DNA of 59,644 nucleotides, filler included, from Catajapyx aquilonaris (Eukaryota): the NCBI GenBank assembly GCA_000934665.2. It is 2 parts of 2 records of this genome, joined end to end, with 100 filler letters (N's around TTAATTAATTAA, not from the genome) between each part and the next. Parts side by side here need not be neighbours in the genome. Positions count along the whole stretch, not along the records: positions 1 to 29,876 come from JYFJ02004753.1; 1 more part is not named here. One strand, given 5' to 3'. A program made the position numbers and the translations under genes. Below the pieces are notes generated by a model. The model worked only from the letters and a program-made list of their open reading frames with translations. It had not been told where the DNA came from and did not search any database. Numbering within the stretch: the first letter of the stretch is position 1; each line of letters begins with the position of its first letter. This document shows positions 5,101-29,179 of the stretch, piece by piece.

Positions 5101-5260
5101 GGAGACCCTGGCCAGGGCGGAACTCTTCCTTTTCTTCACCGGTCTCCTGCAGAACTTCACTTTCGCCTACCCTGCAGAAGATGGGCCGCCCACAACCAAA
5201 CCGTCCATTGCCTTCACCAGACAAGCCACAAAGTACAGGGTAGTCATCAAGGAGAGATAA
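2162..5260 (+). CDS. Cytochrome P450, CYP2 clan, complete multi-exon gene; tandem paralog of the upstream copy
   Basis: N-terminal anchor MIWEALIFVATVLIYY, PPGP hinge, WHEQRRF C-helix, ADLFGAGSETSS, ETLR, PERF, FGTGKRVCLGE; stop at 5258-5260. Confidence 0.93.
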
Positions 5261-5723: not shown

Positions 5724-8700
5724 CTAAGCGTGGTCTCCTGTCACATGGCGCATGGAGAGGTGGTGTTGTGCCTGCAGGGAGGATGCTGTAGACGGGATTG
5801 AGGCGGTGCTGGTGCGACTGCTGCTTCCTCCGCTGGTGGTGTCTGGCTGGAAGTAGGCTGCCGGCAGTCCTGTGGGCTGCTGGAGGAGGTGTGCTTGTGC
5901 TGGAACCATCATCTGAGGTGGGGTGAATGGGTTGTAGGGATGGGCCTGTTGGTGGTGGAAGAAGGGGGGTGGTGGTGGCGGCGGCGGCGGCCCATACCTC
6001 CCCTGCTGTTGCTGGTGCTGCTGGTTCTGGGCGAAGGGAAATGCAATGAAAGGATTACCGGAAGGTGGTGGTTGTGGTCCCTTTCTGGCTGCTGCTTCTC
6101 CGAGTGGATCCATCATGATCATATTCCGCTGGTTCTGTTGCTGCTGCAGGAAGGGAGGAAGCTGCAGGAAGGGAGGAAGCTGCAGGGGTGGGCGTGCTGA
6201 TGAGGCGATGGGTGCAGGTGGTGCGGAGGCCTGGTTCCCCCCGATCTGCTTTGTTTGGAGATGTGGCATGACGTTGGTCTTGCTGGCGGCATCCTTGGCT
6301 GTCTGGAGCGTGTTCTGGATGACATTGATCCTCTGCATGGCCCACTCGAAGGTGTCGTTCATCTCGCTCCTCAGACTGCGACCCGCGCTGCTGCCTGACG
6401 GGGAAGTGGTCGCCTGAGACCCAGTCGGAGTGCTGTGGTTGCTGCTGCCGCCACTGACTGCACGGGTGGAAGACGTGCTGATGTTGCTTCCGGCCCTGGA
6501 GATGCGTCCAGAATGGTTGCTGCTCAGGGACTCCCTCCGACCCAGGGGGACCATCGCCGGCGCCGTCATGGCCATCACCGCCGCCGCCGTCGCCTTCAAG
6601 GCGCTGGCGCTGCCCCGGCGGAACCCGGCAGACGACGACGACGACGGCGACACCGGCGACCCCAGGAAGATGCTGGACCCCGGACTATGATGCTGCTGCG
6701 GTTGAGGCTGCCATGGCGGGGGCTGCATGTTGCCCATGTGCAACAGAGGGGTCGAAATGGACGGATTGGACGGAACTGAAGGCGGTTTGGCAGCGGTGGG
6801 CGATGAAGCAGCCCCGGCGGTTGTTGCAGAAGGAATCATTGTTGCAGGTGGAGGGGTGGCGGAGGGGAATGAACTGCTCCCCCGGAACAGTTCAGAGCTG
6901 GACGACTTATTTCCCTGGTTGAACAAGCTCATGCTTGGAGGCCTTGGCATCATCAGGTACGACGTCTTCCCAGAGGAGGACACGGAGGACTGCGACGATT
7001 TGCTGCACACAAGGAAACAATGCCATGCAGTCAACATGCATCAGATGCTTGCCCTGATGTACTTACTTTTCGAACGGGTACGAGAAGGTGCCTCCGTCGA
7101 GTGGTGGTGGATGCTGGAATGGAACAGGGGTTGGCGTTCCAGAGGACGACGGTGACACCGATGTTGATGTTGGTGGAAGTGCCGCCTCGCTGGTAGGCAA
7201 GGACAGGATCCGGACGCCCTCTTCGTCGTCGAACTCGCTGATGGCCGCGCTGGTGTTATTCTTCTCGCAGCTGCTGTTGGACAGGGTCGTCCTCACCGCT
7301 TCTTCCGGGTCCGCGGCCGGCAGACCGCACTCCCCCAGCAGGAGGGCGTTGTCCACTCCCTGCAGCCCCTCCCCAGATAGTTGCTTCTCCTCCTCGCCCC
7401 AATCCATAAACGCACGCCCGTAATCAAGGACCAGTGGTGGCTTATCGTCCGATGGATCCTCTTCTCCGTAGGCGCCCTTCCTCAGCAGTCTGGCCCTGCC
7501 AATTACACACCAACACCATGACAGCAACTAGCAGGGCTACACACACACATTGTTCGGGAATGCGAATGAAACAGTTACATTTTGCCTTGTCCCGGATGCA
7601 GCATGGTCCTGAGGAATCTCTGCAGGGTCTCCTCCACTGCCGCGACGGTCTCCTCCCTGAACTTCTTGGCCGCGCTGTCTCCAGAGGACTCCTTGGTCGG
7701 AGGATCCGAGGATGCTGCGGGTGCCTCCTTAGCAACAGCACCCTTGTCACTCTTACCAGTCACCTTCGTGCTGGAACAGAAAAGGCCGGAGAATATGAAA
7801 GTGAAATACCATAGCATCTGACCGTATCATTCAGGGTGGTCCAAAATACACGCTAATGTAGATGCTTATTTTTAACCAGTTGCTGTTGAAGTAACCGAGC
7901 AATTTGCTGCGAAACAACCTTGGACTGGCAAGTATTTTGTATGGCTCTGTGCACTCATACCTCTTCTTATTGCTTATGATTGGTTTCTTCTTGAGTGAGG
8001 ATGGGGTGGGAGATGCCTTCCGGGTGGAAGCAGCAGGAGGGACGATCCTCTTGACTGGGGAAGGGTCCCTGCTGGGCTTGACCACCTCCTCCTTGGTCAC
8101 TTGCTTCTTCTCCTGCTTCATCTTCTTGTCCCCATCTTCACTCGGAGACAGTTCATCCGATGCTGGCTTCTGGCTCCTGTAGTCGTTCCCTTCCCTGTTC
8201 ATCTGACTGAACTGCCAGGAGGCAGCAGCAGATATACGTTTGTCAGATTTGCATGGGAACGCAATTAACACGTCTTTGCCGCAGGTACACTCACCTGGAT
8301 GGCCCTTCCTTTGCAGTTGACCTCGAGCTTCTTGAAGATCTGCTGCCTGATAGCCGCGCTGAGCCTCGGGTTCTGCCTGACGTCGATCACCTCGATAGTC
8401 TTGTTCGCCTCTACAAGGGCCAACAGGCTGCGACCACCCCCGCTGCCCACATCGCAGTTTTGGACGTCCAGAGCTGACGAATAAACCCGACAGATAACAC
8501 ATATTCATGCCAGCGAATGGTGGGGACAAGAGGCGAACCTTTGATCCAAAAGTCATCGTATATCTGTGCTGCCAGAAGCGCGACACCCTGGTCACCGATG
8601 GGGTTGTCGTTGAGCGTGAGTCGCTGCAGTCCTGGGAACCCATCCAGGTCAGGACACTGGTACCGGAGGGTGTCCTTCCACAGCTCAGACTTTCGGAATA

Positions 8701-9587
8701 TAGTCTGCGCCTGAAACGACCCATGGAGCATCATGATAGTACAGTCTATATACAGCCAGACTTGGACATCAAGCAGTACCTGGATGAGTTCTGCCAAGAG
8801 CCCAGCCCCGACTTTGGTGATGCCGCAGTCGGTCAGGTTGAGTGATGTGATGCTGCAGCTGTGTCGAAGCACGGGCGACACATGCTGGCAGATGAGGTCG
8901 CCCTTGTTGCACTTGGTCACTGACAGGTGTCGGAGGGTCGTGTTCTCTTGCAGGCCCTGATGAGGGTGAAGGAAAGATTCGCACATGAAATGCAACAACA
9001 AACAAAACAACGGTGGACGTATACCTCGATGAGGACCGTGATGTGCTTCTCGCTGAAGGGAAGGTTCTCCAGTTCCAAGCAGGTGAGCCTCTGGGTGTTC
9101 TTCAGGCAAATTTTGATCGACTCCGTGAGAGACCTGAGCGTACTCTCGGCCGTCGGCAATGGAAGGCCCTTCATGTGCAGGACCTTCAGGCTCTTGCTGT
9201 TGTTGTCCATCTTGTTGCAAGCCACATACCCGCCTGATCACAAACCCAGCATATTATATGCTCCCTCCTCTAGTATAATAAGGATATCTTACCGTCCTTT
9301 CCCCTGGTGTTCCTGATGGCGATGGACAGAAGGTACTGGTCGCAAGCGATCCCCTTGACGACCGGCGTCCACTCCCGGCTCTTGGCCAGATCGGCCTTGA
9401 AGTCGAGGATCCCCTGACCCAGCAGGCTCTTCATTGGCCTCTGACCCCCGACCTTCAGCTGGGAGCACACCGTCTCGTACGTGTCCTCGAACCTCTTGGA
9501 GCTGGTCCTCTTCCTGAGACCCAGCAGTTGTGTCGAGGTCCTCTTCGCCTCCATCTTCAACTGCCCCTTGTCCATCGTCGTCGACAT
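5724..9587 (-). CDS. CEP78: Centrosomal protein CEP78-like (LRR N-terminus, long low-complexity C-terminus), multi-exon
   Basis: N-terminus FEDTYETVC...GILDFKADLAKSREWTPVV, RI-like LRRs (LNLTDCGITKVGA; GLQRLTLNDNPIGDQGV; DDFWIK; IEVIDVRQNP) resemble CEP78 as recalled. C-terminal exon boundaries are approximate. Confidence 0.8.
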
Positions 9588-9847
9588 CACGCTTATCACG
9601 ACCTCGGGCTAAATACGCGGAGTCATAAAAATGGTGCACCAGAATTTAAACGGCAGAATAGCTTGTGTGCCGCCGGCGAGGTGATGACGTTCGCCAGTCT
9701 TATTTCGATTCAACAATGGTTCGGTTGCCAGGTGCGGGGCAGGCACAACAAACGGATCTTTTTTTGGAATTTAAAAAAAAAAAAACAGTTGGCAACACTG
9801 CTGCTTTTCCTTACATCCGGGGATTGGGAGAGAGAGAGAAAACAAAG

Positions 9848-10512
9848 ATGGCGTCTGTTCGACCCGTTTGGAACGCGCTCTTCCGTCGCCTCGGGGCCGC
9901 CCCTGTGCCGACCCCGCGCCCAGGGCCGCCCCTGCTGGTGCTGCCCACGACCATCCGGCGCCAGCTGACCAACTCGGCCCTCCTGCGCGGCAAACATGAC
10001 GAGCACGACGGAGGACTCCCCTTCGGTGTAAGTTCCAGCAGTGTTCCATTTCTAATCAACCCCCACTGACTCGTCCCCTTCCCGCTTATTTTTAGAACAT
10101 GCCGTTCAGTAACAGGAACCGGTACATCTTCACCCTGATCTACACCGTCTTCTTCGCCTCTGGGTTCGGCATACCGTACCTGCTCCTGCGGTTCCAGCTG
10201 CTCAAAGGAAGCGGGAAGCTCGGAGGAGACCTCCTGTCGGGCGAGGACGACGACGAAGACGGGCCACTCGGACCCATCATCAGGACGGTCAGTATATACA
10301 TGCACCTCTCTTACGAATTTGGAATCATTTTAATGGGGGCAACAATGCCCCCCCCTACACACACACAAATAGTATTCTAAAGCATGGGCAGCTGAAGGGG
10401 AATAGCAAGATAATAAGAGATCTGGTCTTCTTTTCAGCTGAGGGAATGGATGGGTCCATCGCAGAAGGAGAAGTGCCCCATCCATAAGGGCCCCTGCACC
10501 TGTGATAACTGA
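9848..10512 (+). CDS. COX7C: Cytochrome c oxidase subunit 7C with C-terminal extension (exons 9848-10027, 10096-10287, 10438-10512)
   Basis: Arg-rich presequence, then HDGGLPFG|NMPFSNRNRYIFTLIYTVFFASGFGIPYLLLRFQLLK, which matches the COX7C core; GT-AG phase-0 introns. Confidence 0.85.
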
Positions 10513-10661
10513 GAAGAGGACTTTGTTTGTCCCTATATGGGAAAGAAAGAAGAGAAATAAATTTGTGTTGTGTGACATATTGCGTTTTCTTTCCCCTCCC
10601 TCGCTCCCAACCAATGGTTTCCCAGTGCTGTTGCCCAGCAGCAAAAGATTGGTTTGTGTCG

Positions 10662-11915
10662 ATGGACGAGAGGCGTCGTCGTCCTCCACCTTGCGTCCCG
10701 ACGCCGGTGTGGTGGGTTGACGAAGGGGAAGGTGTGGTGTACTTCGAGTGGCGTCTGGTGTCACATCAGTGCCGCTTCCCGCCCCACCGGACCACCCTGT
10801 CCCCGACGCCTATCCTGGCTCCATGCGAACCTCTTGCCTCCAACACCACCTCTCGTTATTCTTCGTGGCTCATTGGCATCTTTCCGTGCAGGAGGAGGCC
10901 AGGAGACGCCAAGCCCTTCCTCGCTCTTTCCTTCCATCTGCGCACAACATCCAGGCCTCTCATCAAGGTACTTATTGTCATTATAATGTCGATTGCAGAC
11001 TGACCGAAATAATTAATTGGGGTGGTCAGGTGTCGGTGCAGGTGTCGGCTTATGACCTGAGAGGTGCGCTGCGAGGTCCATCCGTGTTCTCCACCTGCTC
11101 CCAGATGCGTGCTGGAGACGCCCTGGAATTTCCAGAGTACTCCGACATGGAGAAGATGCTGGTGGACCTTCCAGAGGACACGCTTCTCCTAGAAGGGAGC
11201 ATACAGGTGCATGGGGTCGGATGCGTGGTCACCGTCGATGGATCTGCCCTCGTCCTGACCCGAAGGAAGGCCCTCTCAGGAGCAAGTCCTGTGCTGGCCC
11301 GCATGCTGGAAGAAGACATCACCGACGACGAGGACGAGGACAACAACCCTTGCTCTCACCTGGTCCTCGACCTCCGAAACTGCCACTCCCAGCCGGTCAA
11401 AGCCATCATGGCCCACTTCCTACAAGCTCCTGGTAAGGAACCGCAAAAGGTACCCGCAGGACTGGCCCAGCAACTGCTCGACCTTTCGACCTGCTTCGGA
11501 GCAAGGTCACTCAGGGTCGCCTCAGAGGCCTCTCTGGTCGACAGCATTTCCGTGGAGAACGTGCTCAAGTACTGGAGGTTGGCCTCCAGATGCCAAGCAC
11601 ACACTCTCCAGGTATTGTGCAGGTCCATTTTTCATAATAATTACATTGAATTTTCGTCCCCAGCACTGCTAGCTACTGCTAACTTAGCAGTATACCATTC
11701 CCAACTAAGTTAGCAGTATAACTATAGCAGCGGGACGAAAATTCCTCCCTATAAAATTTTTATTATTTCCGCAAAAATTGCAGGAGAGATGCTCCTGGTA
11801 TATGAAGACTAACTTGGATCTAGTCAAGTCCGAAATATCCAGGGAGGACTATCCGGATCTAATCCGGGCCACCTCCATATCCGGAATTGGGCTCAAGAGG
11901 ACGAGAGTCAGCTAA
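10662..11915 (+). CDS. Divergent MATH-like/BTB (SPOP-like) protein, 3 exons
   Basis: BTB core (RKALSGASPVLARML...LRVASEASLVDSISVENVL); last exon 11784-11915 ends in the basic tail LKRTRVS*; first exon has MATH-like FEW..SWLIGIFP..FLALSFHL. Confidence 0.65.
11648..11744. mobile_element. Short inverted-repeat (MITE-like) element in the BTB gene intron; related copy at about 24300-24368
   Basis: GAATTTTCGTCCC...GGGACGAAAATTC ends with inner TACTGCTAACTTAG/CTAAGTTAGCAGTA; similar sequence near 24300. Confidence 0.55.
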
Positions 11916-12274
11916 GGAGGTGATGGTGATTATGAAGCCATGCACTACGTATAATATACGTTGTATAGAATCAGTGTAAACAATACATCTGCATCACCAT
12001 CATCGTCGTATGCAGTGTCATTCTGCGTTTGACCCGAATGCACATATACTGCTATAGTGTATCAGGGAAAGAGACAAAAATAAGCACAGCACATATCGAC
12101 CGATTCAAACGTGAGTAATCGGCAGGACCACGCGGCCGGAAATTGCCCGTCGCATCCGGTGCAGCAGCGCGTATACTAGGAATAGATAATACTATATAGG
12201 GGGCTACAGAGATAGACCAGCTGGGCTTTGGCTCGGTTTCCTCTCCCTCCATCATCACTTGTCATATCGAGTGC

Positions 12275-13150
12275 ATGATGATGGAGGATGGGACCAGGAT
12301 GGTGTGTCCTCTTCTGCTGATCCTTTTGTATCACTTGGGGTCCACCGCTGGTTTTGGAAACGTTCATCAGCAGGTGAGGATTTTCATAATATACACGTTT
12401 GCTGCCTGGATGTGTACTGTTGATGATGGAGAGCGTTGTTCCGGTGCGACCTGATGCACCACCGTCATATTCAGCCCGAGTTCTGCCGGATTCCAGACGA
12501 CCTTCCGGAGTCATGGAACGACGCACTGACCCGATGCGCCGACGGTACTCACGTGGACGGACAGGACGTGCGACAGGTCATTATTTCACTCAAGTTGAAG
12601 CCGTTAATTTAGTATATTTTATTTTGATGTAGTGCTTGCTGAGGTGCGTCCTGCTGGAATTTGACATGGTGCGTACCTATTATGTTCTGGAGACTTCGCT
12701 TTACTAATGATGAATATACTGGACAGATTGACTCCGAGGGAGACCCCATCGTGTCGAAAGTGGTCGACTCGTTGCTGCCTCCGGACGAGTACCCTTCCTC
12801 CAATGGCTACCTGGCCTCCGTTGCGCAAATGTGCCTCGACACAGGTCAGTCGGTGCTGCTGCAATATACGGATGAAGCATGCGCATCTGATCATTTGCAC
12901 TGTGGCCATCAGTGGAATAATGTTATATTCTGAAGACATTGCCTGCTGGCCTTGATTGTTCCAGCAAAGGAGATGCGTCACCTGCTGACCAACGGATGCA
13001 AGCTAGTCAACTTCATCCCGGCCTGCGTCATGCACGTACTTCCAGACGTACGTATTAAGCCATGGATATTTAAATGACAAACGAAACACTTGAAGTACAC
13101 AACTCCTTTTATTGTTTCCCCTGCAGGAATGTAAACGTGCTGGAAGATGA
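12275..13150 (+). CDS. Secreted 8-Cys odorant-binding-protein-like protein A, 153 aa (exons 12275-12373, 12475-12576, 12633-12668, 12727-12844, 12965-13047, 13127-13150)
   Basis: All introns GT-AG and frame-consistent. Signal peptide then PEFCRIP..ALTRC..QCLLRCVLLEFDMIDSEGDP..MCLDTA..GCKLVNFIPACVMHVLPDECKRAGR; two paralogs in the window. Confidence 0.8.
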
Positions 13151-14226
13151 GAATATGGAAATGACCCTCGGATGAAACTTACCGCAGTCTGAGGAGAAGC
13201 TATATGAAAAACTAAATTTGCATTTCTTTTTCTTTGTAGGCCTTAAAACTTGTTTCGTAATGATCACTTGGGTACATAGTGCCTGCACTGTACAGCACGC
13301 AACACACCTGCTGAGCTTCATATCAGCTGTTTTTTTTTTTTTCGTGCACGTTATGTAATGTCTCGCTTTAATTAACATAAGTACATCATGCTGTAATCAC
13401 TGTCACGCTGTCAACGAAACGTTATTTTTGTCCATGTCGTCGTTGGTCCGGTTTTTCGTACCACTGTCAAAGTGACGTCAAATATGTCTCATTTCCACAT
13501 AATTAGCCTATATATTCCTCTCCATTGCACTGTAGCAGGCTTTGAAAATCAACAGTGGGATGAGAAACAGCTTGCTAATAATATTTCCGCGCTTAAAATC
13601 AATGCTTGAATTTTATATTTAGGGGATAATCGTATTATCCAGTGTCAACGAGTGTGTACTCTAGTCATAAGAAATGTAAATGACGCAAAATATAATGTAT
13701 TCCCTTCGCACTTTATAGTCGTAGGTAGTGTATGGCACAAAAATAATAAACCAGACTCTATATAGAAAATATTATCTCACGATCTTTTGTTGACGTGCTC
13801 TCTGACACCCGACAAATACAGTGAGCCTGTCTTGCTCAATCCGTACAACTGGTACGTCGCTGTTCAAGTGATGGTGCAGCTAATAATTATTATCCAGGCT
13901 TACAACCTTTGATCCGCGTTCCATCTGCTGCGATGGCTCATCTGATGCGGATTTCTAGTCCAAAAGGTCTAGCGCATGTCTCTCTGGGCATCGCGGATTG
14001 GAGGATTGCCATGCATTACAATCATCAGGTGCTGCAAGTTGGTACATCTCCGTTAGTAAGGTACATGTGACCTGAACGCAGCAGAAGTCGTCCGTTCTGG
14101 ACTGAACCGACTGGAATTGCAAGTGACTTGGGTTGCCTGCATGTGACTTCCTGCAAGTAGTGACTATCGAAATTATCAGGATTGACCCCCGTTGATTGAT
14201 CCATGCATGGTTAGTATCCGTAGGCG

Positions 14227-16875
14227 ATGGCTTCATCGATGGATGCAGATGATGGTCCCTCTGGAGCGACAGCTGAGGAAGATGTGAGTGCTGAAGCAGC
14301 TTCTGAAGAGGCAATCAGCCTGAGCTCTGTGAATTCGAAGCCTGGCTTGCTGTTCGCTGGAGAAGATTTGTACCTCGGAGGTGCTGGGAATATGGACGGG
14401 GCCTACGACGACGATGACGAGGAAACTGTTGTTGGTATGGGCGTGGGTGGTCACCTGGAGGACCTGGTGACCAGGGTGTGCGGTGGGTTCGGTCGCTGGC
14501 AGTGGCAGCTCCTGGGCTGGGCCTTCCTGGCCAGCTTCTTCGGGGGATACCACAACACTGGCCACTACGTCCTGCACTCTGCCAACACCCCTCACTTCCA
14601 CTGCAACGTCCCTCACCTCGAAGGAAAGGTGGACTGGACAATCGAACAGATCAAGACCGTCACTCAGCCAGACATGTGAGTCCATATCTCTCACACGTTG
14701 GGTGTAGTACAGCACTGTACAATGATTATGCATTGTGTAATGTTGTGTTGTGACGTGTTGCAAGGGACGACCCCTGCTTCATATACGATCGCAACTACTC
14801 TTCCCTGTCGTCCATGTCCTACGAGCAAGCCATGCTGCACCTGAGCAACCAGAGGAGAGACGACCAAGTGCGTCCTGCGGGCAGCATACCGTGCACCCAG
14901 TGGGTGTACGACACCACCGACTTCGCCTCCACCACTGTCACCGACGTAAGTCCCATCAGCTGGCCTCATCAATGCCAAATGACATGACGTTGACGTAATT
15001 AATAATTGCAGTGGAACCTGGTGTGCAGCAGATCTGCTCTTCGACCCACCATCCAGAGCGTGCACATGTGCGGTGTCCTGCTAGGAAGCCTCCTCTTCGG
15101 CATCGTCTCAGACAGGTAGTACAGCAGGTGGTCGTACATGTTGTATACGGTTAAGTGTATACTGTACACGTCATGTGGTGCGCAGGTACGGTCGTCGTTG
15201 GGCGGCGATCCCAGGAGCGGCGGTGGTACTGGTGGCGTCGGTGGCGTCTGCGGTGGTGCCCTACTACCCCCTCTTCCTGGCCATGAGGTTCCTCGCAGGG
15301 GCAGGCATGGTCGGACTCTACGCATCCTCATACGTCGTCAGCAAGTATCGCATGTGGCGTAATAATGGTACGGTGTCAATGATGAATCTTGCTTATTGCA
15401 CAGTGTTGGAATGGATGGGGGTAGAGAGACGGGCGCTGTCAACGATGCTGTACGAGATGGGTCCACCAGCAGGAGTCCTCTGCTCCATCGGCCTCTCTTA
15501 TCTCCTCACCAACTGGAGGCACCTGCATCTTGCCATGGGCATAGCCACCTCAGTCTTCATTCTCTACTACTGGTATACTGTTACTCTCACCCGCATGATC
15601 CTTACAGCAGCACTCTCATATTATTTGTGCAGGATTCTCCCAGAGTCTCCCAGATGGCTTCTGGTGAGGGGACGTCTGCAGCAGCTGGAAAGAATGCTGC
15701 GCAAGGCAGCTGCCAGCAACAGAAAGGAACTGCCCACTGACACTACTCTTCAGCTCTTGCTCCAGAGGGCTAGAGTGGTATGTAAGAAACACAGGGCATC
15801 AACAACAACATAAAGAGTTGGATGGTGCACGACCACTGTGTCGGTGCCATCAGCAGTACAAGTGAATTGCTATGAACGTAGCATGCATTGTAGGAATTGT
15901 GTGTGCAGCAGCAGTTGTCTGCGGATGCTGAGACCAAAGAGAGTGGAGGTACTCGTGCCCCAAGGAAAGGTGGAGGTGTGATGTCCTTGGTCCGCACCCC
16001 CCAGATGCGTTCTCGCAGCCTGAAGCTCGGCCTGCTGTGGCTGACCATAGGCACGGTCTCATATGGCACCACATTCCTGCTGGCTCGTCTGGCCCTCAGC
16101 ACCCGGGTGCTGCTGGGCCTCCACGAGGGGGTTACACTCCTGACCAGGTCAGTAGCCTTCAAGCCCATTGACCACTGGGGACGGAAGAGGGTCCATGCAG
16201 CTGCCTTCTTTGGCATCGCACTCTTTTCCATGCTCGCCTGCTTACCCTTTGGTAATAACATGCTGGGCATTACCCCATTACATCAACTGGTTTCCCACAT
16301 TCAATTCACCCTTTTCCGAAACAGATTATCCAGTGCTGATTGGTACGTTTCTGCTCCTGAGTCGCGTGTGCACAGCAACAAACTTTACATTGATCTACTT
16401 GTACACAGCTGAGCTGATGCCAACCCAAATGAGGAACCTGTCCATCAACTGTGGATCAGTGTGCGCCAGGATAGGTGCCATCTTGGCACCATTTCTGGTT
16501 GACCTGCTGGTTAGCATCATATCCACATGCAAGATTATTAAAATACAGTATCTGCAACTTGCTTACAATTTTCAATTCTCAATAATATTGCAATGCATTT
16601 GTACAACTAACACCAAGCCTCACTGAATCCTCCTCTCTCGTAATCATAAGGGCTGGTACCACGTGTCAATCCCAACGGCAATATTTGGCTGCCTATCATT
16701 GGCTGCAGGAATGACCTGCCTCTACCTGCCAGAGACCATGGGCAGGCCCCTCCCAGACACCATTCAAGACGTAGAGGATTCAATGAGGAGCACCAGGGAA
16801 GGACAAAGGCTCCATTCGTTCAAGAGGGAGATGGGAAGAGACGGGGAGCAGAGGAAGATGGAGGATTGCGCATGA
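14227..16875 (+). CDS. SLC22 organic cation transporter-like (MFS), multi-exon
   Basis: GGFGRWQW, Cys-rich first loop, WNLVC, SDRYGRR, LPESPRWL, YTAELMPTQMRN, LPETMGRPLPDTI motifs. Confidence 0.92.
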
Positions 16876-18149
16876 CTACATTCCACTTATGTTGTCAAGC
16901 TCTTGCGGCACGCTGGTCTCACCCTATGAAATGCAGAGTCGAGGAATTTAGGACCACAAAATACATTATGTTTTAGCATATATTTTGTCATACGTGTTAA
17001 ATAAACGACTATGTTTAGTTATGCTCTTAACATTACTTTATTGTAAAATTTCATCACATTTCTCATTGTCTGAGCTGGATTGGCTGCAATTGCAGACAAG
17101 TATACAGTAAATGCTACTTAACCATCCCCATTCGAATGTTTCCTGCGGTTTACTGCGACTGCATACGTTTTATCATCAAAATATCTGCATAAACAAGGAA
17201 AATAAGAGCACTTCAACTGATTGTGCACGCAAAAATATAAATACTTGACACAGTTTTCAACATTTCTTTTTTGTCACTAGCTGACCAGAATTATTATGTT
17301 ACTCTTATGATTAATTTTTTTCTGAGCAACCATCACGACAACGCCTGCAGTGGTAATACTGCCAGGCTGAAACATATCAGCACCATTAGCGTCTGAATGA
17401 TCACATCAGGTGGCTGGGATTCAACTCGACCATTTCACAGCAACTCATTGCCCCCATTAGTTGGCCGACTCCAACTGATGAGAAACACTTCTCTGGGGGC
17501 ATAATTAACTAGTTTATCGCAATAAAACCAGTTCTGATGCTCCTTCTCCCACCCCACAATATTGGAGGGGGAATACTGGCCACACATATTGATCGTACTT
17601 ACAAATTATGGTTATCAGTTAACAATAATTCTGTTTGTGATAACCGTAATTTGTAAGTATGATCAATGACAATTACTGTCCACCCTGGCAGCTTTACCAT
17701 GAACACAACCAATCCTGACGAGGCATATGGCGCACTACTTACAAGTATATTTGTACCACATTTTATTGCTGGCAGTGTTGCATTCTTTCTGCAAATTTGC
17801 CTTAACTGCTATACTAGTGAGGAAAGCAGCATTAAGTAAATAACAACGGCAGCTGTTGGCGTGGCCTAACACAAAAGTTGTAAATAAATATAATACCAAA
17901 TACCGAATAAATTAAAAAGAAAACAAATATGGCAGATAAATACTCGTAAGTTCAAAAAATTTCCTGGCTGTTTCCTGGCTGGTTTGTTTTACAATGTGAA
18001 CAACAGCTGCTCTAAAAATAATCTCAAATCTTCTCCAAAATAATGCTGTTCAGGTATTCAACCCCCGGTTTATCATGTACCAAATAAATATGACTAAGTG
18101 ACATTAAACAAAAAAAAAACAAAAAAAAATGCACAAGGGCAACATCACA

Positions 18150-19034
18150 TTACTTTGAGGAATTCAGCTTCTTTGGATGAGTCCCCAAATGAACACGGAG
18201 GCCAGACCGACTTTCATACGATGTCGGGCAGTGTGGGCATGGATACGACTTCTTTGGCTGGTCTTCAACCTTTGGCACGTCCGATGGAATCTCCAAGCAA
18301 CTTGTGTTGATGTGAGTGGCGTGGTGCTTGCGCATGTCAGACTTGGAAGCGAAGAACTGATCCACACATAGCTTGCAAGCAAACCGGCCAGTTTTTAAGA
18401 CCGGCTGATGGGGTTTGACTGGAGTGTGAGAATATGAGTCGCGCATCTCATTGGCTACTAACACGCTGTCCTCAAACGCTTCCTGATGACTTGGCCGCTT
18501 CTGTTCAAGTGGTTTCAAAATGGAAGTGTAAGCCTTGGGCCAGTACTTCAGCGTAGCGAGACTCATGTGCGAAACAACGTGGACGAGGAGTTGCGATTGC
18601 GTACGGAAGGCTTTGTGGCAAAACTTGCAAGAGAACTGCTTATGAGACCTCCTGTGCCTCTTTGCCACATGCTTCATCAAGCGGGTCATCTTACTGAACC
18701 GCGCCGGGCAGTGCTTGCAAGCGAATCGCTTACTCTTCCTCTTGTACACCCCTCGAATGTGCACCGCCTGCACGTGCTTCAGTAGCTCATCCTTGGTCCA
18801 CAACCGCTTCCTGCAGCATCCGCATCCGTAGGGCGGCTCACCCGTATGCACCGACCCATGGGACAGGAGCATGTGGTAGGTCGGGAAGGTCGCCCCGCAC
18901 AGATGGCAAATCTTCTGCTCAGCCTTCTTTGCAGCCGCAGTCTTCCCAACCATGGCTGGCTCCTCCTCAACAACGGCAGCAATGGGTTCCGGTGGCTCTT
19001 CCTTCACCCGTGGCGGTTCTTGGTCACCCGGCAT
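18150..19034 (-). CDS. C2H2 zinc-finger protein (6 fingers), single coding exon
   Basis: 294-aa ORF with six CxxC...H...H motifs and an HTGEPPY linker. Confidence 0.88.
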   Translation of the reverse strand: MPGDQEPPRVKEEPPEPIAAVVEEEPAMVGKTAAAKKAEQKICHLCGATFPTYHMLLSHGSVHTGEPPYGCGCCRKRLWTKDELLKHVQAVHIRGVYKRKSKRFACKHCPARFSKMTRLMKHVAKRHRRSHKQFSCKFCHKAFRTQSQLLVHVVSHMSLATLKYWPKAYTSILKPLEQKRPSHQEAFEDSVLVANEMRDSYSHTPVKPHQPVLKTGRFACKLCVDQFFASKSDMRKHHATHINTSCLEIPSDVPKVEDQPKKSYPCPHCPTSYESRSGLRVHLGTHPKKLNSSK

Positions 19035-19302
19035 TTGTCTTCTTCACTACAAGAGGATTGCCCGATAACAATGTGCAGTTTCAATGAGATTAAGAACACC
19101 AACCTGAAGCTGAGCCTGAAGCACCGTGGCCTGAAGCACCATGCCGGTCTCTGGCGCTGTTCGATCTTCTTCTGGCGCTTCCGGTGTTGCCAGACAGTGA
19201 CAAAGGAAGTGCGCTTCGGATGTGGCAACACTGTCGGCAGCAAAGATGGCGCTGCCCACTGGTCAGTAGTTGTTGCTCTCTCTCAAGGACTAAAGAAGGA
19301 AG

Positions 19303-21118
19303 GATGCTGCACCAGAACCAGCAACCAGAAGAAGATGGCCAGCAGGTAAGCAACACACGGGACAACCAGCAGATGACAACACTAATGGTCTTCTTCCAGG
19401 AGGACAAGGTGTGCCTCCTGCTGGACGATGGGGCTCGGCTGGAGTACAGCCGGAAGCAGCTGGCCTCCTGGAGCAGGTTCTTCAGGGCCATGTTCAGCCA
19501 GGGGTGGAGGGAGAGCAACCAGCAGGAGGTGGAGGTCGGAGGTGTCACGGGGGACCAGCTGATGGAGGTCGTCGCCTACGCCTCGCATGACAAGCAGGTG
19601 AGCCCATCCGGTTGGAGGCCACCAAACGCAGCTGCTGACCTGTGCCGTCTTTTCCAGCTGCCGGTCACTGACCTGGGGTCTATCCTCCGCATCCTGCGCA
19701 CCTCCGACTGCTTGGACTTTGCTTCGGTGCGTGAATCCTGCATTTCAGCCTTGGGTCCCCCTCGCTCCACAGGGCCGTACAGGTGCCTGCCCGTCTTGCA
19801 AGCTTGCCTGGACTTTGGCCTGACCCAGCCCTCCCTACTGACCTGCGCACTGAACACCGCTCGGTGGTACCTCCCGTCTCTCCAAGGGTTCGAATGGGAC
19901 GTCCGCTGTCTTAGTTGGGAAGCGCTTCTTTCGCTCCTGCAAGATCCGCAGGCCAGGCTTGATTGCCAGCAGGATGCGACCATCTTGGCCAACACCTGGG
20001 CCAAAGGCTGCCAGCGCAGGATGAAACTAGTGGAGGAGGCGGGGATACGCGGCCTCGTTGGGGATACGCCTGTCCCGAGGGAGCCTCCGTTTCAGCCCTG
20101 CATTGCCGGAGTGTCCAACAACGACCAGACTGTGGTCATATACACATTCAACATGGAGGCAGGCACCCTGGACAAGCTGGCTGAGATCACAGGAGAGGTC
20201 GCCGATGGGAAGTGCCGTCTCCACGGACATTACTTCATTTCACATGGTTTGTTGCCTGAAGTTTTTTGTCCTGTCATTTTGTCATTATTTCAGTGTTTTT
20301 TCCATTCAATGTTCAAGTGATTCAAGTGGAGGTATGCTATGTTATTAAATGGCAGCGTTTTCCCAGGAAAGGACGTGTACATAACTGGTGGCGAGTACAA
20401 GTTTGGGTACAGCATATGGAACGAGCAAGTGAGGCATTGCGACTTTGTGTTGGATCCGTCCAACTGGACCAAAGTGACCTGCTCCCTGATGGCAAACAAG
20501 CGTCGCCACCACTCCTGCTGCATTGTTGGTGACAAGTTGTACCTTGTGGGAGGGTACGGACGGCACCGGCTGCCAGTGGACACCCTGGACAGGCTGTGTC
20601 TCCGGACAGGCAAGTGGCGCAGCTGTGGAAATGTGCCCAATCCCACCCAGATGTCCATACCTGCCGTGAGCTGCTTCAGAGTGAACCAGCTGTTGCTATT
20701 CAGGTCTAGCTCGGAGGCCAATGTGTACGATACGGTATTTGGTGAGTGGATGAATCTGCATGTAGAGAAGGGACCGGGTGTGGGGGTCGTGGCTTTCAGG
20801 TATGCGGTCCCACACCCAAACGGCAGTGTGTACCTGGTAGTGTCCCACTCTGCGGAGCTGATGGCGTCTAGTCAGCAGCACGGCACTTGGGTGGTGGAGA
20901 GGGTGGGTCGCTTCAAGGGAGAGGAGGTCCAGGGGATGTGTCTCGTCAGGGATTTACTGTACGCATTCACTTCCTCCGAAGACGAAGGCTGGACGGTGGA
21001 GATGTACGACCCAGCAAGCCAGACATTCGAGGTGAGGGCAAGCTCAACAGAGGAACACCCTCTCGCTAATGTCCAGTTTGAGCACGGAAGTTGTTTCGTG
21101 GCCCCTGTCTACAGATAG
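19303..21118 (+). CDS. BTB-BACK-kelch-like protein, multi-exon (start codon uncertain)
   Basis: BTB (RKQLASWSRFFRAMFSQGWRESNQQEV) and kelch repeats (VYITGG, LYLVGG..W, VEMYDP); introns near 19346, 19598 and 20247. Confidence 0.85.
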
Positions 21119-21460
21119 AGTCTGGTGCAACTTGTACGGTAACAGTGATAAAAAGTTGTGATATGTGCACCACCGGTGTTGTGAGATTTGTCAAAAATTT
21201 GAGGGCTTCCCGAATGGTCCAAGACCAAAGAGATGTATAGAAAGCGGCCAGACATGTACAGATTTTTAACGCAATAAACATGCAGTAAAACTGATGTGAT
21301 AATCATTTGACTAAGCTGTCAGCACGATTCAAATTTTTGTGGAGATATTTGGCAACACTGTTTACCCAGTGCTGCCAGCTTGCGGCGTGTTGCTGAACCT
21401 TGCAGGATCAGCAGACATGTGAAACTTTCTTTGGGGAAATATTTTCTGTCAAAGGGGAGG

Positions 21461-21926
21461 ATGTTTGGGAAGAAGTCTGGCTCCTTCGCTAAGGGTGGGT
21501 CCCAACACCTGGAGATTCCAGAGCCCCCGACCGCAGACCAGATCCTGGAGGACATTGACGGGGCACCAGACGACGACGTTGCCTTCTCCGTCGTCAGGCG
21601 AACCGAACGCATAAGTATGGAAAATGTGGTTGCGATCTGGCGTCAGCTGCAGTGCTGTTGTTTCAGGCTTGATGGAGGAGATGGACTGCTCGGACGACCC
21701 CTGCAGGTCCCCCGTGTCACCTGGCATCGACACGAGCCAGCAGGTTGCGGCTGGTGAGGTGGAAGCTTCCTACCTGAAGGTGAAGCAGTACATCAACTCC
21801 TGCGGTCACCTGAACTCCCAGGTGGACCTGATGAACACCAAGCTGGATCAGCTGAAAGGGAGCGAGGCCTCGCTGAAAAGTGCGGTCCAGGCTGCAATGG
21901 TGTCCAATGAAAAAAAGACCGGTTGA
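21461..21926 (+). CDS. UPF0449 (C19orf25-like) protein; exons 21461-21614 and 21667-21926
   Basis: PEPPTADQILEDIDGAPDDDVAF matches the recalled UPF0449 motif; phase-1 GT-AG intron; coiled-coil-like C-terminus. Confidence 0.8.
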
Positions 21927-21959
21927 CTACAAAACGTTTATTAAACTACAAGGAACACG

Positions 21960-22154
21960 TCAGTTGCTCTTTTCCTGCCGCTTCCTGACCTCCTGCTCGT
22001 ACATGACGTCCGCCCACTCCTGCGCCTGGTTGTACTTATTCCGCCTGATGACCGGCTGCAGGCCAAACCTCCACAACAGCAGCATGCTGGTGGTGGCCAC
22101 CAGGGCTCCAACCAGCAATCCCACGGGTCTCCCCTGACCCACCGGACCCGCCAT
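21960..22154 (-). CDS. 64-aa small single-TM protein, function unknown
   Basis: MAGPVGQGRPVGLLVGALVATTSMLLLWRFGLQPVIRRNKYNQAQEWADVMYEQE..; coding-like GC3; AATAAA shortly after the stop. Confidence 0.65.
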   Translation of the reverse strand: MAGPVGQGRPVGLLVGALVATTSMLLLWRFGLQPVIRRNKYNQAQEWADVMYEQEVRKRQEKSN

Positions 22155-22160
22155 CACTTA

Positions 22161-22406
22161 TTATCCTTGCTGCTCCTCTTTGGAATGAACGCCTCCAGGG
22201 AGTGGAGGGCCACCAGGGTCAGCGCTATGGTCCCCACTAGGATCTTGACCTTCGTGGGCATGGGCTGCCTGCTGCTGCTTCAGTAGCCTCTCCTCCCTCT
22301 GCTGCTTGAGGATAGGCCTCCAGATGTACACTCCGCTGGTCACTCCAACCACAAGGGCCACGAACAGGCTGGCACGACTCAGCCCACGGGGTCTCCTGAT
22401 CAGCAT
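22161..22406 (-). CDS. PIGBOS1: PIGBOS1-like mitochondrial microprotein, 81 aa
   Basis: RGLSRASLFVALVVGVTSGVYIWRPILKQ resembles PIGBOS1 (LTFAQLLFATVLGIAGGVYIFQP); ATG directly after a TTTTGCAG acceptor. Confidence 0.75.
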   Translation of the reverse strand: MLIRRPRGLSRASLFVALVVGVTSGVYIWRPILKQQREERLLKQQQAAHAHEGQDPSGDHSADPGGPPLPGGVHSKEEQQG

Positions 22407-22611
22407 CTGCAAAAGGGATCACAGGGGAACAACCCCTGGGGTTTAATATGTCGCCCATAGGGAAAAAGTGTGGCATGGCGAAGGGTGGGGATTGTGTCGT
22501 ACTCGGTACGGCCGCCTTGGACTAGTTTGAGCGATGCTGAGACGCCCAAATCTTGTGCGGAACAATTATCCGGCTGCACGACCGCTGATTCCATGGGGGC
22601 CGCCATTGCTT

Positions 22612-22714
22612 CAGGGTTGCCAGATGGAAGGAAGCAGGGTTGCCAGATGGAAGGAAGCAGGGTTGCCAGATGGAAGGAAGCAGGGTTGCCAGATGGAAGG
22701 AAGCAGGGTTGCCA
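22612..22714. repeat. 23-bp tandem repeat CAGGGTTGCCAGATGGAAGGAAG, 4 full units plus a partial
   Basis: Units start at 22612, 22635, 22658, 22681 and 22704. Confidence 0.95.
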
Positions 22715-23096
22715 ATAGCGGCGCGCAATTCAAACTGCGTGTGCAAATGATGAAGAGGCGGTTTAATTTGCGAAATAATTTATTCAGTCTCTCCGTCGGG
22801 AGAAAAAGAAAGACACAAAACAAACATTTAAATAAAGTGGCCAGAGTGACTGTGCGGCCTTGAAATAACGGAAGTGAAGGACACGAAGACATGGAAGAAC
22901 GAAGAAGTAAGAGGCAGTGTTTGCTGGTGCAACTAATAAGTCCCATCCTGATTGCGAGTGTCCGGCGTCGGTGGCGTCCATGCATTGAGCGTGTTGTTCA
23001 GTCGTGAACTATAGAGGAAAGTTGTGGAAAGAGATGGAAGGAAGGAGCGTCGTTGGCGTCGGTCAGCAGCAGCAGCAGGAGGAGGTTATATGCTGT

Positions 23097-23745
23097 TTAG
23101 TAGTGGATTCCATGGGCGGCCAGCTTGGCGGCATGGAAGCCGTGTCCGTGTCCGTAGGCGCCGTAGGCCACGGCGGGGGCAGCGTGGACGACGGGGGCAG
23201 CGTGGACGACGGGGGCAGCGTGGACGACGGGGGCGGCGTGGACGACAGCGGCCTGCAATATATAGGACATATTCATTGTAGCACGTTGAATCATCGGTTT
23301 ATGTGCATTGCATATACAGTACCTGACGGTCGATGACGGCGTTGAAACCGTTGATTGGGTCAGAGGTGTACGAGACGGTACGGAGGGTGCCGTCGGGGTC
23401 GGCCACGGAGTAACGTCCGACGACCACGCCACCGTCGCGGGTCTCGGTGTGTCCCTTGGAGTCGCCGGTCAGGGCGTCGTTCACGCTGTACGAGTAGGTG
23501 TACTGGGGATGGGGGTCGAAGGGCTCGATGGCAACAGGGGCGGCCACGGCCACTGGAGCAGCGTGGGCCACGGCCACAGGGGCGGCCACGGCATGGTGGG
23601 CGAATGGGGCGGCGTAGCCATGGTGCACCACACCGGCGCTGGCAATGCCCACAAGGGCGACGAGGATGGCGATCTGCAACAACAATAATCCCAAGTCAGC
23701 CTGTGACAATGCACCGTGCCAACACTCGCTCCTTACCTTGTACAT
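23097..23745 (-). CDS. RR-2 cuticular protein (chitin-binding R&R), 3 exons
   Basis: MYK micro-exon, signal peptide, AAPV repeats, [58 protein letters not shown]. Confidence 0.95.
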
Positions 23746-23779
23746 GTTAGTTGCTTCTGGTTGGTACTGATTCTACCAG

Positions 23780-23820
23780 TGGACTGATGAGGAGGGCTTG
23801 GCCGTCCCTGGTATTTATAC
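23780..23820 (-). promoter_or_regulatory. TATA box plus arthropod initiator of the cuticle gene
   Basis: Minus strand GTATAAATA at about 23820-23812 with TCAGT about 25-30 nt downstream. Confidence 0.7.
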
Positions 23821-25194
23821 GGGGGGTGCTGGCCAGCAGCACACGAATGATGGCCATGGCAATGCTTCCTGCTATTTTTTCCCCACATTTGCTGCTGGCA
23901 CCTTACCACGCCCTGTATACCCACTCCCTGTACGCAACCTTTGCTGGAATATTACACGCGTACAAAAAAAGAAAGAAACAGGAGGTGTACGTGTCTGGAG
24001 GAATGCGAAGGTGATCCTGCATCGGAGCAACACCCGCCCGCAGCCAATCAACTTCCGCAACCGGTCCAGCAGTGGAAAGATACATTTTGGTGGCCACCTT
24101 CCCTTCTCCTATGCCCAAGTTCTAGGACGCCCTACTATATGCGCAGGCCTCCAGTTCCGTTTCACACGACACACGCAACTCAATAGTAAGATCAGATGAT
24201 AACTAACTTGGAAGACTCGCAAGAACGGTGTCTTACCGCCCCATTCATTGTTCAATTTATTCATTGCTCGATTTGCGAGTGAGCTGCTAAATATATAGCC
24301 GTCTCACTGCTATAGATACTGCTAATGATAAGTTAGCAGTACCTATATAGCATTGGGACGAAAATTTCACCCAATCTCTCCAGAACCAGGTGGAACAATA
24401 ACAACAAGTATTATTCATCCTGATGACTGGCAATACATGGCGAAGTCAATGCCAAAATTATTAATGGATCGAGTGTCCTTCTGGGCAACATAAGCAGCTG
24501 CTTATTGCAACTTTCCTGGTGGAATAATTTAAGTATGGTCCAGTCAGAATTAAAGCGAGGGGGGAAAGGTGATCCGACAAGTGGGATTAAAGGTAGCATG
24601 TTGCGATTACACTGCCTGGTTAGAGGGAATAAAGATCTTTGAAGGGCGGTCGAGGTCAGTTGTTTATTTCAGCCTCGACTCTTTGGATGGACCGGTTTAC
24701 TATGCCACCATTTCCCTCGCACTTGCTCTTGAGAAAATAAAAGTGAGAGTGAGCCAAGCGACGACCTTGCCCGATTATTCCTCAATCATTTTCCCCCATC
24801 TCAGCCTGCCTCTCCCAATAAAAGCCATTTGTCCCTCAGGGTTACGGACACAAGCAGCACCGGTTCACGGCATTCAGCCATTCAAGCTCGGTGCAATTAT
24901 ATAGGCTAGATATCAGGCCGCGAATCCAGTTCCTGTTCTGCTCCATCTTTTTATCTACTTATTTGTGCCAATTACAGAGGCTGTGCACTTCACGCTGACC
25001 ATTACAAGTTAAACAAACATCGGTCGTATATTTCACGCTTTTATTTATTCTTTTGCGACCTGTAGCCAACTGCTGTATACACACAGCAATGCAGAGTGTT
25101 GAGGATGAGTATTATATAATACTGGCAATAATTCATGTGCGAGCTAATCATATAAAGTGGACTTATATGCACTGTACAGTCCATCACTTGTGAT

Positions 25195-26305
25195 TCAGAC
25201 GTAGCAGATGTCTTCAAATGTTTCTTGGGCGCACTCGAGGACCACACGAGACTTTTTGCAGGCCTCCAGGTTGGAACTGGACACCATTGCTGCAATAGAG
25301 TGGACAGTACAAGGCAAGATATACTAATACCTCCACAACAATAATTAAAAAATACGGTACTACAGTATTTTTCACCAGCTCAGAAAGTGGAATGTACAGA
25401 GGTCTGTCTCACCTGTAACTGCGCACATGTCGATCAGGGAGGAGTAGAAGGCGTTTGTTTCTGGGTACTTCTTGACCGGTATTAGCAAGTCGGCGTACTT
25501 CTTTCCCACTGGAAATCCGTCGCTGTCCAGCTGACAATAATTAATGATTATATTGAATCATCACACTCACTCACAGGGTCAATATATTTAGGTCTACACT
25601 TGGGTTTCCCCATCTCGAACTATCAATGTCAGAAAATAACTCGTGCCCATAAAAGAACGGTCTAACTTTCTCACGGTGTATATGTATTACAGGATATTCT
25701 ATGATTGTATAAGGAATCGCTTGTACTGTACTTACTATTCCGAGTCTGTCCAAGGCGCATTTCTCCAAGGAGCACTGGAAACGATAAGGAAATATCAATA
25801 ATTACATATAGGTGTACTTCAATCTATGCAGCATACAAATTGCTTATAAGTAATGTTGTGTGTAGGGCATGTCACGCAGCCTTATTAGTTGCACATGACA
25901 TGTTACTTGCTTTGCAGAATACTTATTATTTACATTGTGCTATAGGCCATGCATTTCAGGAAGACGTATCGTTGTAAAGGATGCGCACGTGTTTAACTGC
26001 ATGCATTTTTTTTTTTTTAAAAAAAAAGGTATATACCCTGTCGATGTTGTGCTGCACTTTCGTCTGGACGCTGCATGCCTCGAAGGCTCCGGGCATGTGC
26101 TTGGCCAGGGCGTCGTTCTTGTCCGGCAGACGACAATGCTTGGGCTGAATATATTGTAATGGTCAATGCCGAAGAATTGATTCTGGCATGCAAAATCCAT
26201 CAGAGGAAATCAATGCGTATATACCAGTTTGGGAACCCCCAGCGAAGGATTGGCGGTCATCACCAGTAACACGATCATCACAGCTGATGATGCTGCGTAG
26301 TTCAT
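25195..26305 (-). CDS. Secreted 8-Cys OBP-like protein B, 146 aa (exons 26305-26225, 26144-26037, 25774-25736, 25530-25413, 25289-25195)
   Basis: MNYAASSAVMIVLLVMTANPSLG signal; PKHCRLP..FEAC..RCSLEKCALDRLGILDSDGFP..YPETNAFYSSLIDMC..ACKKSRVVLECAQETFEDICYV; all GT-AG; exon 4 is 118 nt as in the paralogs. Confidence 0.82.
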
Positions 26306-27174
26306 CTTCGGCTTATGCTGGTGATGCTGGATTATTATGCCCTGAAACTTACTTAGATGGACTATACTGAAGGCCTTGCATTAATTATTAATTATAGAGC
26401 TCCCATAAAAGAGCAAACAAATAGGAATTGCCGGGTAATAAAATGGTCGGCTGATATGATCTCAAGTACTATAATCTCGAGGAGATCTCTGATGTGAGGG
26501 ATGAAATTTGTTAATAACCTTACCTTTGCGAATAAGGATGAAAGGTGTAGACGACAACAGTCGACGTTGATAATAATATTATACAATGAGTGGTGACAAG
26601 TGTATGTGTCTTATTCCGACCCGCAGCAGAAGTTGACCCTGACAGAGATATTATAACTGACCAGCAAGCACTGGTGCCCAGTGAATGAGTCTAGAGGACT
26701 CCTTTTATCGCGTGCCAATTATTGTTCGTTATCTTGTTGTTGGTTGGTTGGTTTGTGCCGCGGGGCCAATTGCCAGTAGGCCAAATCGGCGCTTCCTCTA
26801 TACACACACACGTGATGCTGATGTAATAATCCGGCAGAAGATATAGGCAAAAGAGCATCAGCAGGAAAGATGACTTCCTTCCATTGTTGATTGCGCCTTA
26901 TCATATTGGCAGCAAGGTTCTCCCCCTCATTATTTTTTCCTGCTTTGCCTATTATTGCCTCTCGCTGTAACGAGAACATACAGTCGCAACACCGGTTTTA
27001 ATTTGCACCTATGCGTGGAGAGATTCTAACTCAATAATTGTGACAAAACCGTTCGCCTTGCGATACAATCTGACAACAAATCAATCGCCATATGAATTTT
27101 ATTTAAAAATCGACAGCAGCTGTTATTTAGCTCAGAAGTTGGAGGTTTGTCCCCAACACCGACAATGTTGCCGA

Positions 27175-28080
27175 TTATTTCTTGTAGCATTCCTGGAATC
27201 GTAATTGGCATTAGAGTGTTTTTTAATGCATATTTCTGCGTTAATAACTCACACTGAGGAATTGTTGCGCGGCGCACTCCAAAATCTTGATTGGTTTGGA
27301 GCATTCCTCGTCCTCTCCGTACCAATCGCCGTTGCTTCTTGTGCTTTGATTTGCTGGAAAAAATGATACCGGCCATAGTCACGATGCCAAGTCTATAACA
27401 ATGAATCGAAGTAATCACCTTCCTGTGTACAGTTGTCGACTATTTGCGAGAAGAAGTGGTTGGTCTCCGGGTACAGGTCGGGAGGCAAGTAAATGTCTGC
27501 AAATCTCTGTCCGATTGGGTATCCTCCCTCGTCCAACTATATATTTCAGTGCGGAAAACATGCAAAATGTTACACAAGGACTGAGGATTACTCATGATTG
27601 GTAAGAATCATGTGCATAATATCAATCGAGGCTGATATATGCGACGTTATTCTTACCAGGCCAAGTTTATTGAAAGCGCAGATCAGCACACACTGAAATA
27701 AACACAAATTGAGAGCTGCATGTGTATATACTAAGTGAGCAATGTCTGCATACATTCAGCGCAATTGTGTCTGCAATTTACTTATACCTGAGGATTGGTG
27801 TCTGGATTGTCTGGGGTCATCATCTGGTTCTTGCAGTTTTGGTAGTGAGGATTGAGGACATTGTTCTCCAGGTCTTTCTCCGGGTGGCGGCAGTGAATCT
27901 CCTTATCATTAGAGGCGTCATTACAATGCATCAGCAGGGGTTATTTTGTACCAAATCCAGAGTTGAACTTACTTGTGAGTGAGTGAGCGCGCAGCAGATC
28001 ATCAGAAAGGTGAGCCAGCGGATCCAATGACGGGTCGTGAAGGAGAGATTCTTCACTGCAGAAGTGTTGCAATGGCCCAT
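27175..28080 (-). CDS. Secreted 8-Cys OBP-like protein C, about 164 aa (exons 28080-27973, 27901-27788, 27692-27657, 27536-27419, 27353-27253, 27192-27175)
   Basis: Hydrophobic WIRWLTFLMICCALTHS; EIHCRHP..YQNC..QCVLICAFNKLGLLDEGGYP..YPETNHFFSQIVDNC..ECSKPIKILECAAQQFLSECYKK; same intron phases as paralog A. Start codon less certain. Confidence 0.8.
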
Positions 28081-29179
28081 TTCTCTGCACAGGAGCACCT
28101 TATTAATGCCGTCTCTGTTGTGCTTGTAATGATGTGCGGCAATCGCGACAGACGGATGAGTATGCCGCTCAATGAAAGGCAGATATGTAATTCCCGATAT
28201 TGCACCACCCGGATGCCGCTCGCCGCTGTAAACAAGCATGCTGCGTACGAATGACCACGCAATGTTTGACGCAATTAGGCATGTCCTCCGTCGCAATCAC
28301 CTAACCTAACCTACCGGACTCACAAGTCAGTTTGAATTTTGATGCCAGCTATTTCATATTAGTTCGATAGCAACTGGTTCAGTTTGGATGGAACAGCAGC
28401 TACGTTTTTAAAAAAAGGTGTTGGCCAGCACGTGGCGCCTCGTAGTGACCGGTTGACTCACTTACACTCGCACCACCTGACCGAGAGAGGGCAAACCTCC
28501 GCTAGTGCGGACTTGCGCCCGCTAGAGTGCAGGTGGCTGAAGCCGATAGTGCCACCTGGCGACTCACTCAGAACTACATGGTCAGTCCAATTGGCAGAGC
28601 TCTCTGGCGGCCACCTCCTCAACTCGGTCCCCACACTCAGAAGGCGCTCATTCAAACAGAATACATATCGCAATGTGTAGTACCGTCTCCAAATATTATT
28701 AACGCGATGACAAGAGGAAGTAACTGCTAATTAAATACCGTCCCCTACTGTACAATCAAATTCCCCGAGCATATCTCAACTACACACGGGGCTAACAAAG
28801 GTTTTTGTTTAATAACCTTTAGGAGGTCACCAATAAAGGATATCACGAAATATAATCAGCACAACCGTCTGCCGTCACGTTTACCGTAACAGTGTATTAT
28901 ATTGCGAAATATGCGCATTTTGACCAAAATGTGCAAGATTGGAGATTATTATTTTTTGAAAGTGACTGTATGCATTACATAACAAGTGCATTATTCCAAA
29001 CGATTCCAAAAGCATGAGTTTAAAATGTCATATTGGTTTTCAGAACGGTTCAGGACATAGCCGCATGACTGTATACTCATTGAAAGCAATGGAACCAACG
29101 CCAGAGAGACAATCTGATCGAACTACTTTATCGATCTACTGTATCTACTGATCGAACTACTGTATTGAATACAGTAGTT

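Follow-up and report, generated by a model that had tools for sequence, protein, structure and literature searches.

Three related short-exon genes of Catajapyx aquilonaris encode eight-cysteine, putatively secreted proteins that may be divergent odorant-binding proteins

Within a 59,644-nt stretch of DNA from Catajapyx aquilonaris (assembly GCA_000934665.2), which as a whole is called the window in the following, lie three short genes, g1, g2 and g3, whose products share eight cysteine residues and signal-like N-termini. The genes were rebuilt by coordinates. Gene g1 occupies positions 12275..13150 of the plus strand and consists of six coding exons (12275-12373, 12475-12576, 12633-12668, 12727-12844, 12965-13047 and 13127-13150) that encode 153 aa. 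The other two genes are located on the minus strand: the coding part of g2 (26305..25195) comprises five exons (26305-26225, 26144-26037, 25774-25736, 25530-25413 and 25289-25195) and specifies 146 aa, and g3 (28080..27175) comprises six coding exons (28080-27973, 27901-27788, 27692-27657, 27536-27419, 27353-27253 and 27192-27175) and specifies 164 aa. All introns are of the GT..AG type, all three frames are open, and the exon phases are identical across the three genes; g2 has one single exon where g1 and g3 each have their final two. The genes g2 and g3 are arranged in tandem, and g1 is located 12 kb off on the opposite strand. The models of the earlier note, three genes with GT-AG introns and products of 146-164 aa, could be reproduced to the base from the window coordinates.

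Public runs for the organism comprise four DNA runs, from which the assembly was probably made, as well as one run of the same organism from another study, denoted X5, which contains 23% of the sampled words and was compared over positions 12000-28300. In this region the X5 contigs skip at least 15 intervals bordered by GT..AG or CT..AC, none of which is skipped in the DNA run X1. Judged by its joints only, X5 behaves like a transcriptome. Four X5 joints in g1 (12576/12633, 12668/12727, 12844/12965 and 13047/13127) correspond to introns 2-5, and three were found in the coding part of g2 (25289/25413, 25530/25736 and 26144/26225). The X5 joints listed include neither intron 1 of g1 nor intron 2 of g2; the repeat at 25994-26035 was skipped. 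An additional joint, 26341/26524, is located in the 5′ leader of g2. It shows CT..AC on the plus strand with 116 letters on its shorter side, and on the minus strand the corresponding intron (26342-26523) has GT at 26523-26522 and AG at 26343-26342. The gene therefore starts with a non-coding exon, which has its end at 26524 and extends to at least about 26639, and the 5′ untranslated region (5′UTR) with its intron is placed at 26342..26639 on the minus strand. This first exon, added to the five coding exons of g2, corrects the earlier model. Genes g1 and g2 are real spliced genes. As regards the predicted junctions as a whole, RNA-type contigs agree with four introns of g1 and four of g2 (three coding, one in the 5′UTR) but give no support for g3: no X5 contig covers this gene and the X5 depth is 0 over 26688-27775, which says nothing on whether g3 is silent. 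The g3 model rests on its intact frame, its canonical splice sites and its likeness to g2.

Comparison of the spliced proteins by local blastp, with the database size set to 1e7 residues, related g2 to g3 with an E value of 4e-20 (36% identity), g1 to g2 with 2e-11 (29%) and g1 to g3 with 2e-6 (29%). The alignment of all three proteins has 25 invariant columns, among them all eight cysteines, which are kept at identities that span 26-39%. By these sequence comparisons g1, g2 and g3 form one family. A three-protein profile run against all six-frame pieces of the 59.6-kb window (E<0.1) matched only exons of g1, g2 and g3, and the window therefore contains neither a fourth copy nor a fragment of one. 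The best-conserved stretch is the fourth coding exon, which in each gene has 118 nt, begins in phase 0 and ends in phase 1 (12727-12844 on the plus strand in g1; 25530-25413 and 27536-27419 on the minus strand in g2 and g3), as had been claimed before. It extends from a D-x-x-G just after C3 to 3-5 residues beyond the fifth shared cysteine, which is C4 of the classic formula discussed below. The copies in g2 and g3 have 33-38% identity to the g1 copy. The motif string previously reported for this exon, however, had wrong numbers of intervening residues; nine of its 39 positions are invariant, namely D2, G5, P7, D14, P18, Y22, P23, N26 and C36.

The N-termini of all three proteins have a hydrophobic core followed by candidate cleavage sites with small residues at -3 and -1. 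This was determined by a simple rule-based check, which found the signal-like hydrophobic segment announced by the earlier note in each protein, and the products of g1, g2 and g3 may thus be secreted. The mature chains would have approximately 13-16 kDa, about 120-130 residues and an isoelectric point (pI) of approximately 4.67 (g1), 6.97 (g2) and 4.74 (g3). Whereas g2 has eight cysteines in total, g1 has one more within its signal segment, and g3 has three more in an N-terminal segment with a long region ahead of the hydrophobic core. Hydrophobic periodicity in the helix band (90-110 degrees) was compared with that of 1000 shuffles per protein, and the observed value was reached by none of the shuffles for g1 and by 4 for g3. 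The beta-band periodicity was not raised in g1, g2 or g3, and Chou-Fasman-type propensities were uninformative on the three proteins.

The spacers between the eight shared cysteines measure, in the order g1/g2/g3, 16/19/18, 13/12/15, 3/4/3, 42, 14/13/20, 8 and 8 residues, and the spacing given earlier matches that of the rebuilt proteins exactly. In the field, odorant-binding proteins (OBPs) are assigned mainly by their cysteine pattern, according to the available text of PMC4145409, and the available text of PMC5623005 gives the classic formula as C1-X25-30-C2-X3-C3-X36-42-C4-X8-14-C5-X8-C6. When cysteines 1, 3, 4, 5, 6 and 7 of the eight are mapped to C1-C6, g1 is a strict fit to this formula (30, 3, 42, 14, 8). 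The proteins of g2 (32, 4, 42, 13, 8) and g3 (34, 3, 42, 20, 8) fit only with loosened ranges (25-34 for C1-C2, 3-4 for C2-C3 and 8-20 for C4-C5), to which all three proteins conform. Random placement of eight cysteines along a chain of 120 residues yielded the strict formula in 11 and the loosened formula in 47 of 200000 trials, a null model that is crude because real cysteine-rich families are not random; since g1, g2 and g3 are kin, their fit moreover counts as one observation and not as three. The crude null notwithstanding, the match of six cysteines to the classic formula is not trivial. All three proteins retain the two extra cysteines, of which the first is located in the C1-C2 segment and the second 8 residues past C6, and these are therefore probably paired with each other. 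All three proteins have a D-x-x-G after C3, which would be typical of OBPs, and two of the three have a G three residues before it. A chemosensory protein (CSP / OS-D) identity was also considered and rejected. The CSP formula, C1-X6-8-C2-X16-21-C3-X2-C4 in the class definitions in the available text of a 2025 review (PMC12495806), is not found in these proteins, whose spacings include neither a C-X2-C nor an X16-21 gap after any C-X6-8-C.

The size of the proteins, the acidic pI of g1 and g3, the signal-like N-termini, the cysteine formula, the helix signal and the arthropod host lead us to assume that the three genes most likely belong to the insect-type OBP superfamily as a divergent eight-cysteine form, an assignment that we regard as probable though far from certain. 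That the host is an arthropod follows from an R&R chitin-binding cuticle-protein domain at 23302-23772 on the minus strand. With the classic OBPs (PF01395) the family shares a signal-like N-terminus, about 120-130 mature residues, a six-cysteine spacing that is strict for g1 but loosened for the other two, an acidic pI in two of three members and a helix-type periodicity in two of three, as well as clustered paralogues at about 30% identity in an arthropod host; it differs from them by two more conserved cysteines, by the X4 spacer between C2 and C3 of g2 and by fragments that find no match to PF01395.

Several results weigh against an OBP identity. The C2-C3 spacer of g2 is X4 instead of X3, C1-C2 is too long in g2 and g3, and C4-C5 is too long in g3; for g2, 375 of 1000 shuffles reached the observed helix-band periodicity. 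Profile and sequence searches were also negative, but they were conducted with single exons or with intron read-throughs (stops as X, intron-coded filler between exons) instead of spliced proteins. The read-throughs covered g1 exons 2, 4 and 5, g2 exons 4-5, g3 exons 3-4 and g3 exons 5-6. With these fragments, Pfam returned no family at E<=10, PF01395 included, for any of nine single exons or four read-throughs, and none of six sequence queries to the PDB, three of them exon profiles and the others read-throughs, returned an OBP chain; the best matches were to unrelated chains (E 0.5-3.3), one of them aligned to intron-coded filler. These profile and PDB negatives are weak because every query was an incomplete domain, and the best-conserved motif, G-x-x-D-x-x-G after C3, is split by intron 3. 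For the g1 read-through (exons 2, 4 and 5 plus filler), AlphaFold2 gave a model with a mean pLDDT of 38.5, which was discarded, and exon 4 gave no usable match in the ESM Atlas. When longer proteins were searched by words, g2 exon 4 extended by two read-through codons found nothing at E<=10. The exon-4 profile found no relative among 1.84 billion representatives: its three matches, repeat proteins of 846-3154 aa, are spurious because they are long repeat proteins aligned in 5-10 short stretches. In a metagenome scan the same profile gave 383 pattern matches, of which none was confirmed. Even the window's own proteins were missed in that collection of 1.84 billion representatives, and g1, g2 and g3 are therefore not contained in it. 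Of the claims of the earlier note, that of a family of three small proteins with signal-like N-termini and short exons is supported, and none of the large protein libraries searched contained it. The claim of an OBP-like carrier fared less evenly: the classic six-cysteine formula is present, with a strict fit in g1 and a loose one in g2 and g3, but the fragments gave no match to PF01395. What the putative OBP membership rests on is the cysteine pattern together with the general properties of the proteins.

The foremost alternative is a lineage-specific, secreted and disulfide-stapled family that is unrelated to OBPs, with a function for example in cuticle, egg, seminal, immune or digestive fluid, and that has come to resemble them in its cysteines by convergence or chance. 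We consider this possible, although we would not expect it. It would account for the lack of any profile or sequence link to an OBP with the fragment queries and of relatives in large libraries, for the strict formula in only one of three members and for g2 being without a helix-band signal. However, those negative searches relied on fragments only, the strict formula arose in just 11 of 200000 random placements of eight cysteines, and the proteins accord with OBPs in their size, their acidity and their signal-like N-terminus as well as in their arthropod host; the formula of the CSPs, another kind of small soluble carrier, does not fit.

That the proteins are Plus-C OBPs, a subclass known from insects, appears very unlikely. 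The formula of this subclass in the available text of PMC5623005 is C1-X20-41-C2-X3-C3-X41-46-C4-X19-29-C4a-X9-C5-X8-C6-P-X9-10-C6a, and the present proteins share with it the possession of more than six cysteines (eight), a C3-C4 spacer of 42 residues that is inside the range of 41-46, and a C-x8-C-x8-C tail that is reminiscent of it. The proline that defines the subclass is, however, absent after C6 in all three proteins: the candidate C6 is followed by V, A and A and the last cysteine by K, Y and Y, and there is no cysteine 9-10 residues past a C6-Pro. With the three cysteines of the tail taken for C4a, C5 and C6, the C4a-C5 spacer becomes X8 instead of X9, and C4-C4a becomes 14/13/20 compared to 19-29. 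The family moreover has one extra cysteine ahead of C2, which is foreign to the Plus-C formula. The label "Plus-C-like" that had been attached to the family is thus not appropriate, as one extra cysteine is located in the C1-C2 segment and the other 8 residues past C6, and they do not correspond to C4a and C6a. That some or all of the genes are dead or wrongly built is highly improbable, since X5 contigs show the modelled splicing of g1 and g2 and three open frames with canonical splice sites have kept eight shared cysteines at 26-39% identity, even though g3 has no transcript contig in the single RNA-type run and an unusually long N-region before its hydrophobic core.

The region between g1 and the g2/g3 pair contains sugar-transporter-like, zinc-finger, BTB-Kelch, UPF0449 and cuticle-protein genes. 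The BTB-Kelch gene (19094-21118, plus strand) is transcribed, as its intron 20246-20365 is seen in X5 contigs; a search of proteins of 211-672 aa with its open reading frame found no relative at E<=1e-10. At 22640-24380, a stretch that surrounds the R&R cuticle-protein gene, contigs of the DNA run are fragmented and have loose ends and two 1-base deletions (24346 and 24348), which suggests a repeat or a haplotype difference. Upstream of g1 the window has two tandem cytochrome P450 genes on the plus strand (484-1545 and 4139-5257), whose exon frames align to identical segments of the Pfam p450 profile (261-350 and 350-407), and a GC-rich segment (5570-11710; 0.53-0.58) with long overlapping open frames of up to 438 aa on both strands, in which a single LRR_6 match at 8414-9253 on the minus strand was the only Pfam family. 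Three genes with a fibrinogen C domain (ficolin/techylectin-like) are located within 17 kb on the plus strand (33137-33571, 35854-36489 and 49277-50105); the best public relatives of the frame at 35854-36489 have at most 50% identity and come from rotifer, cnidarian, barnacle and others. A search of the window for Rfam families and tRNA found none.

If the three proteins are OBPs, the signal peptide would route them to an extracellular fluid, for example sensillar lymph or haemolymph. There the chain would form a compact bundle of alpha-helices that is stapled by the three interlocked disulfides of OBPs, C1-C3, C2-C5 and C4-C6, and a fourth bond would probably link the two extra cysteines in the C1-C2 segment and 8 residues past C6. 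A pocket inside the bundle would carry small hydrophobic molecules. For these proteins we infer the fold, the way in which the cysteines pair, the carriage of ligands and any part played in olfaction. More speculatively, and with considerable doubt, the family might be an OBP class of its own with four disulfides, from an early-branching hexapod, in which the extra bond would run from the C1-C2 segment to the C-terminal tail, unlike in Plus-C OBPs, whose extra cysteines C4a and C6a and whose proline after C6 are missing here.

The novelty assumed at the outset is weaker than stated, since OBPs in Collembola were already reported in 2014 (PMC4145409). The available text of that article by Pelosi et al. 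places OBPs in hexapods only, including seven sequences from two springtails, and gives none for crustaceans, myriapods and chelicerates. In the available text of Vizueta et al. (PMC5381604), OBP-like proteins that resemble Minus-C OBPs are described from chelicerates and a centipede, and none were found in crustacean proteomes. If the host is a springtail-like hexapod, OBPs would be expected in it, and the few divergent OBPs of the springtails Folsomia candida and Orchesella cincta (PMC4145409), likewise early-branching hexapods, would by description be the nearest published counterparts; the present genes would then be new, unannotated and somewhat unusual members. A crustacean host would lend the family more weight, but none of the results suggests one. 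The chelicerate and myriapod OBP-like proteins, again compared by their description in PMC5381604, are likewise small, secreted and tied to OBPs mainly by the cysteine pattern and a modelled fold; they are without the same two cysteines as Minus-C OBPs, whereas g1, g2 and g3 keep all six and add two.

The gain in knowledge is incremental. Springtail OBPs were published in 2014, and large size, divergence and clustering are familiar traits of OBP families. The present genes illustrate how carrier genes made of short exons are missed by public protein sets. If they encode OBPs, they would add unannotated members with an unusual extra pair of cysteines from a poorly sampled arthropod lineage and would bear on the origin of the OBP fold. 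Should the four-disulfide class prove true, it could show an early state of this fold that bridges the OBPs of insects and the OBP-like proteins of chelicerates and myriapods.

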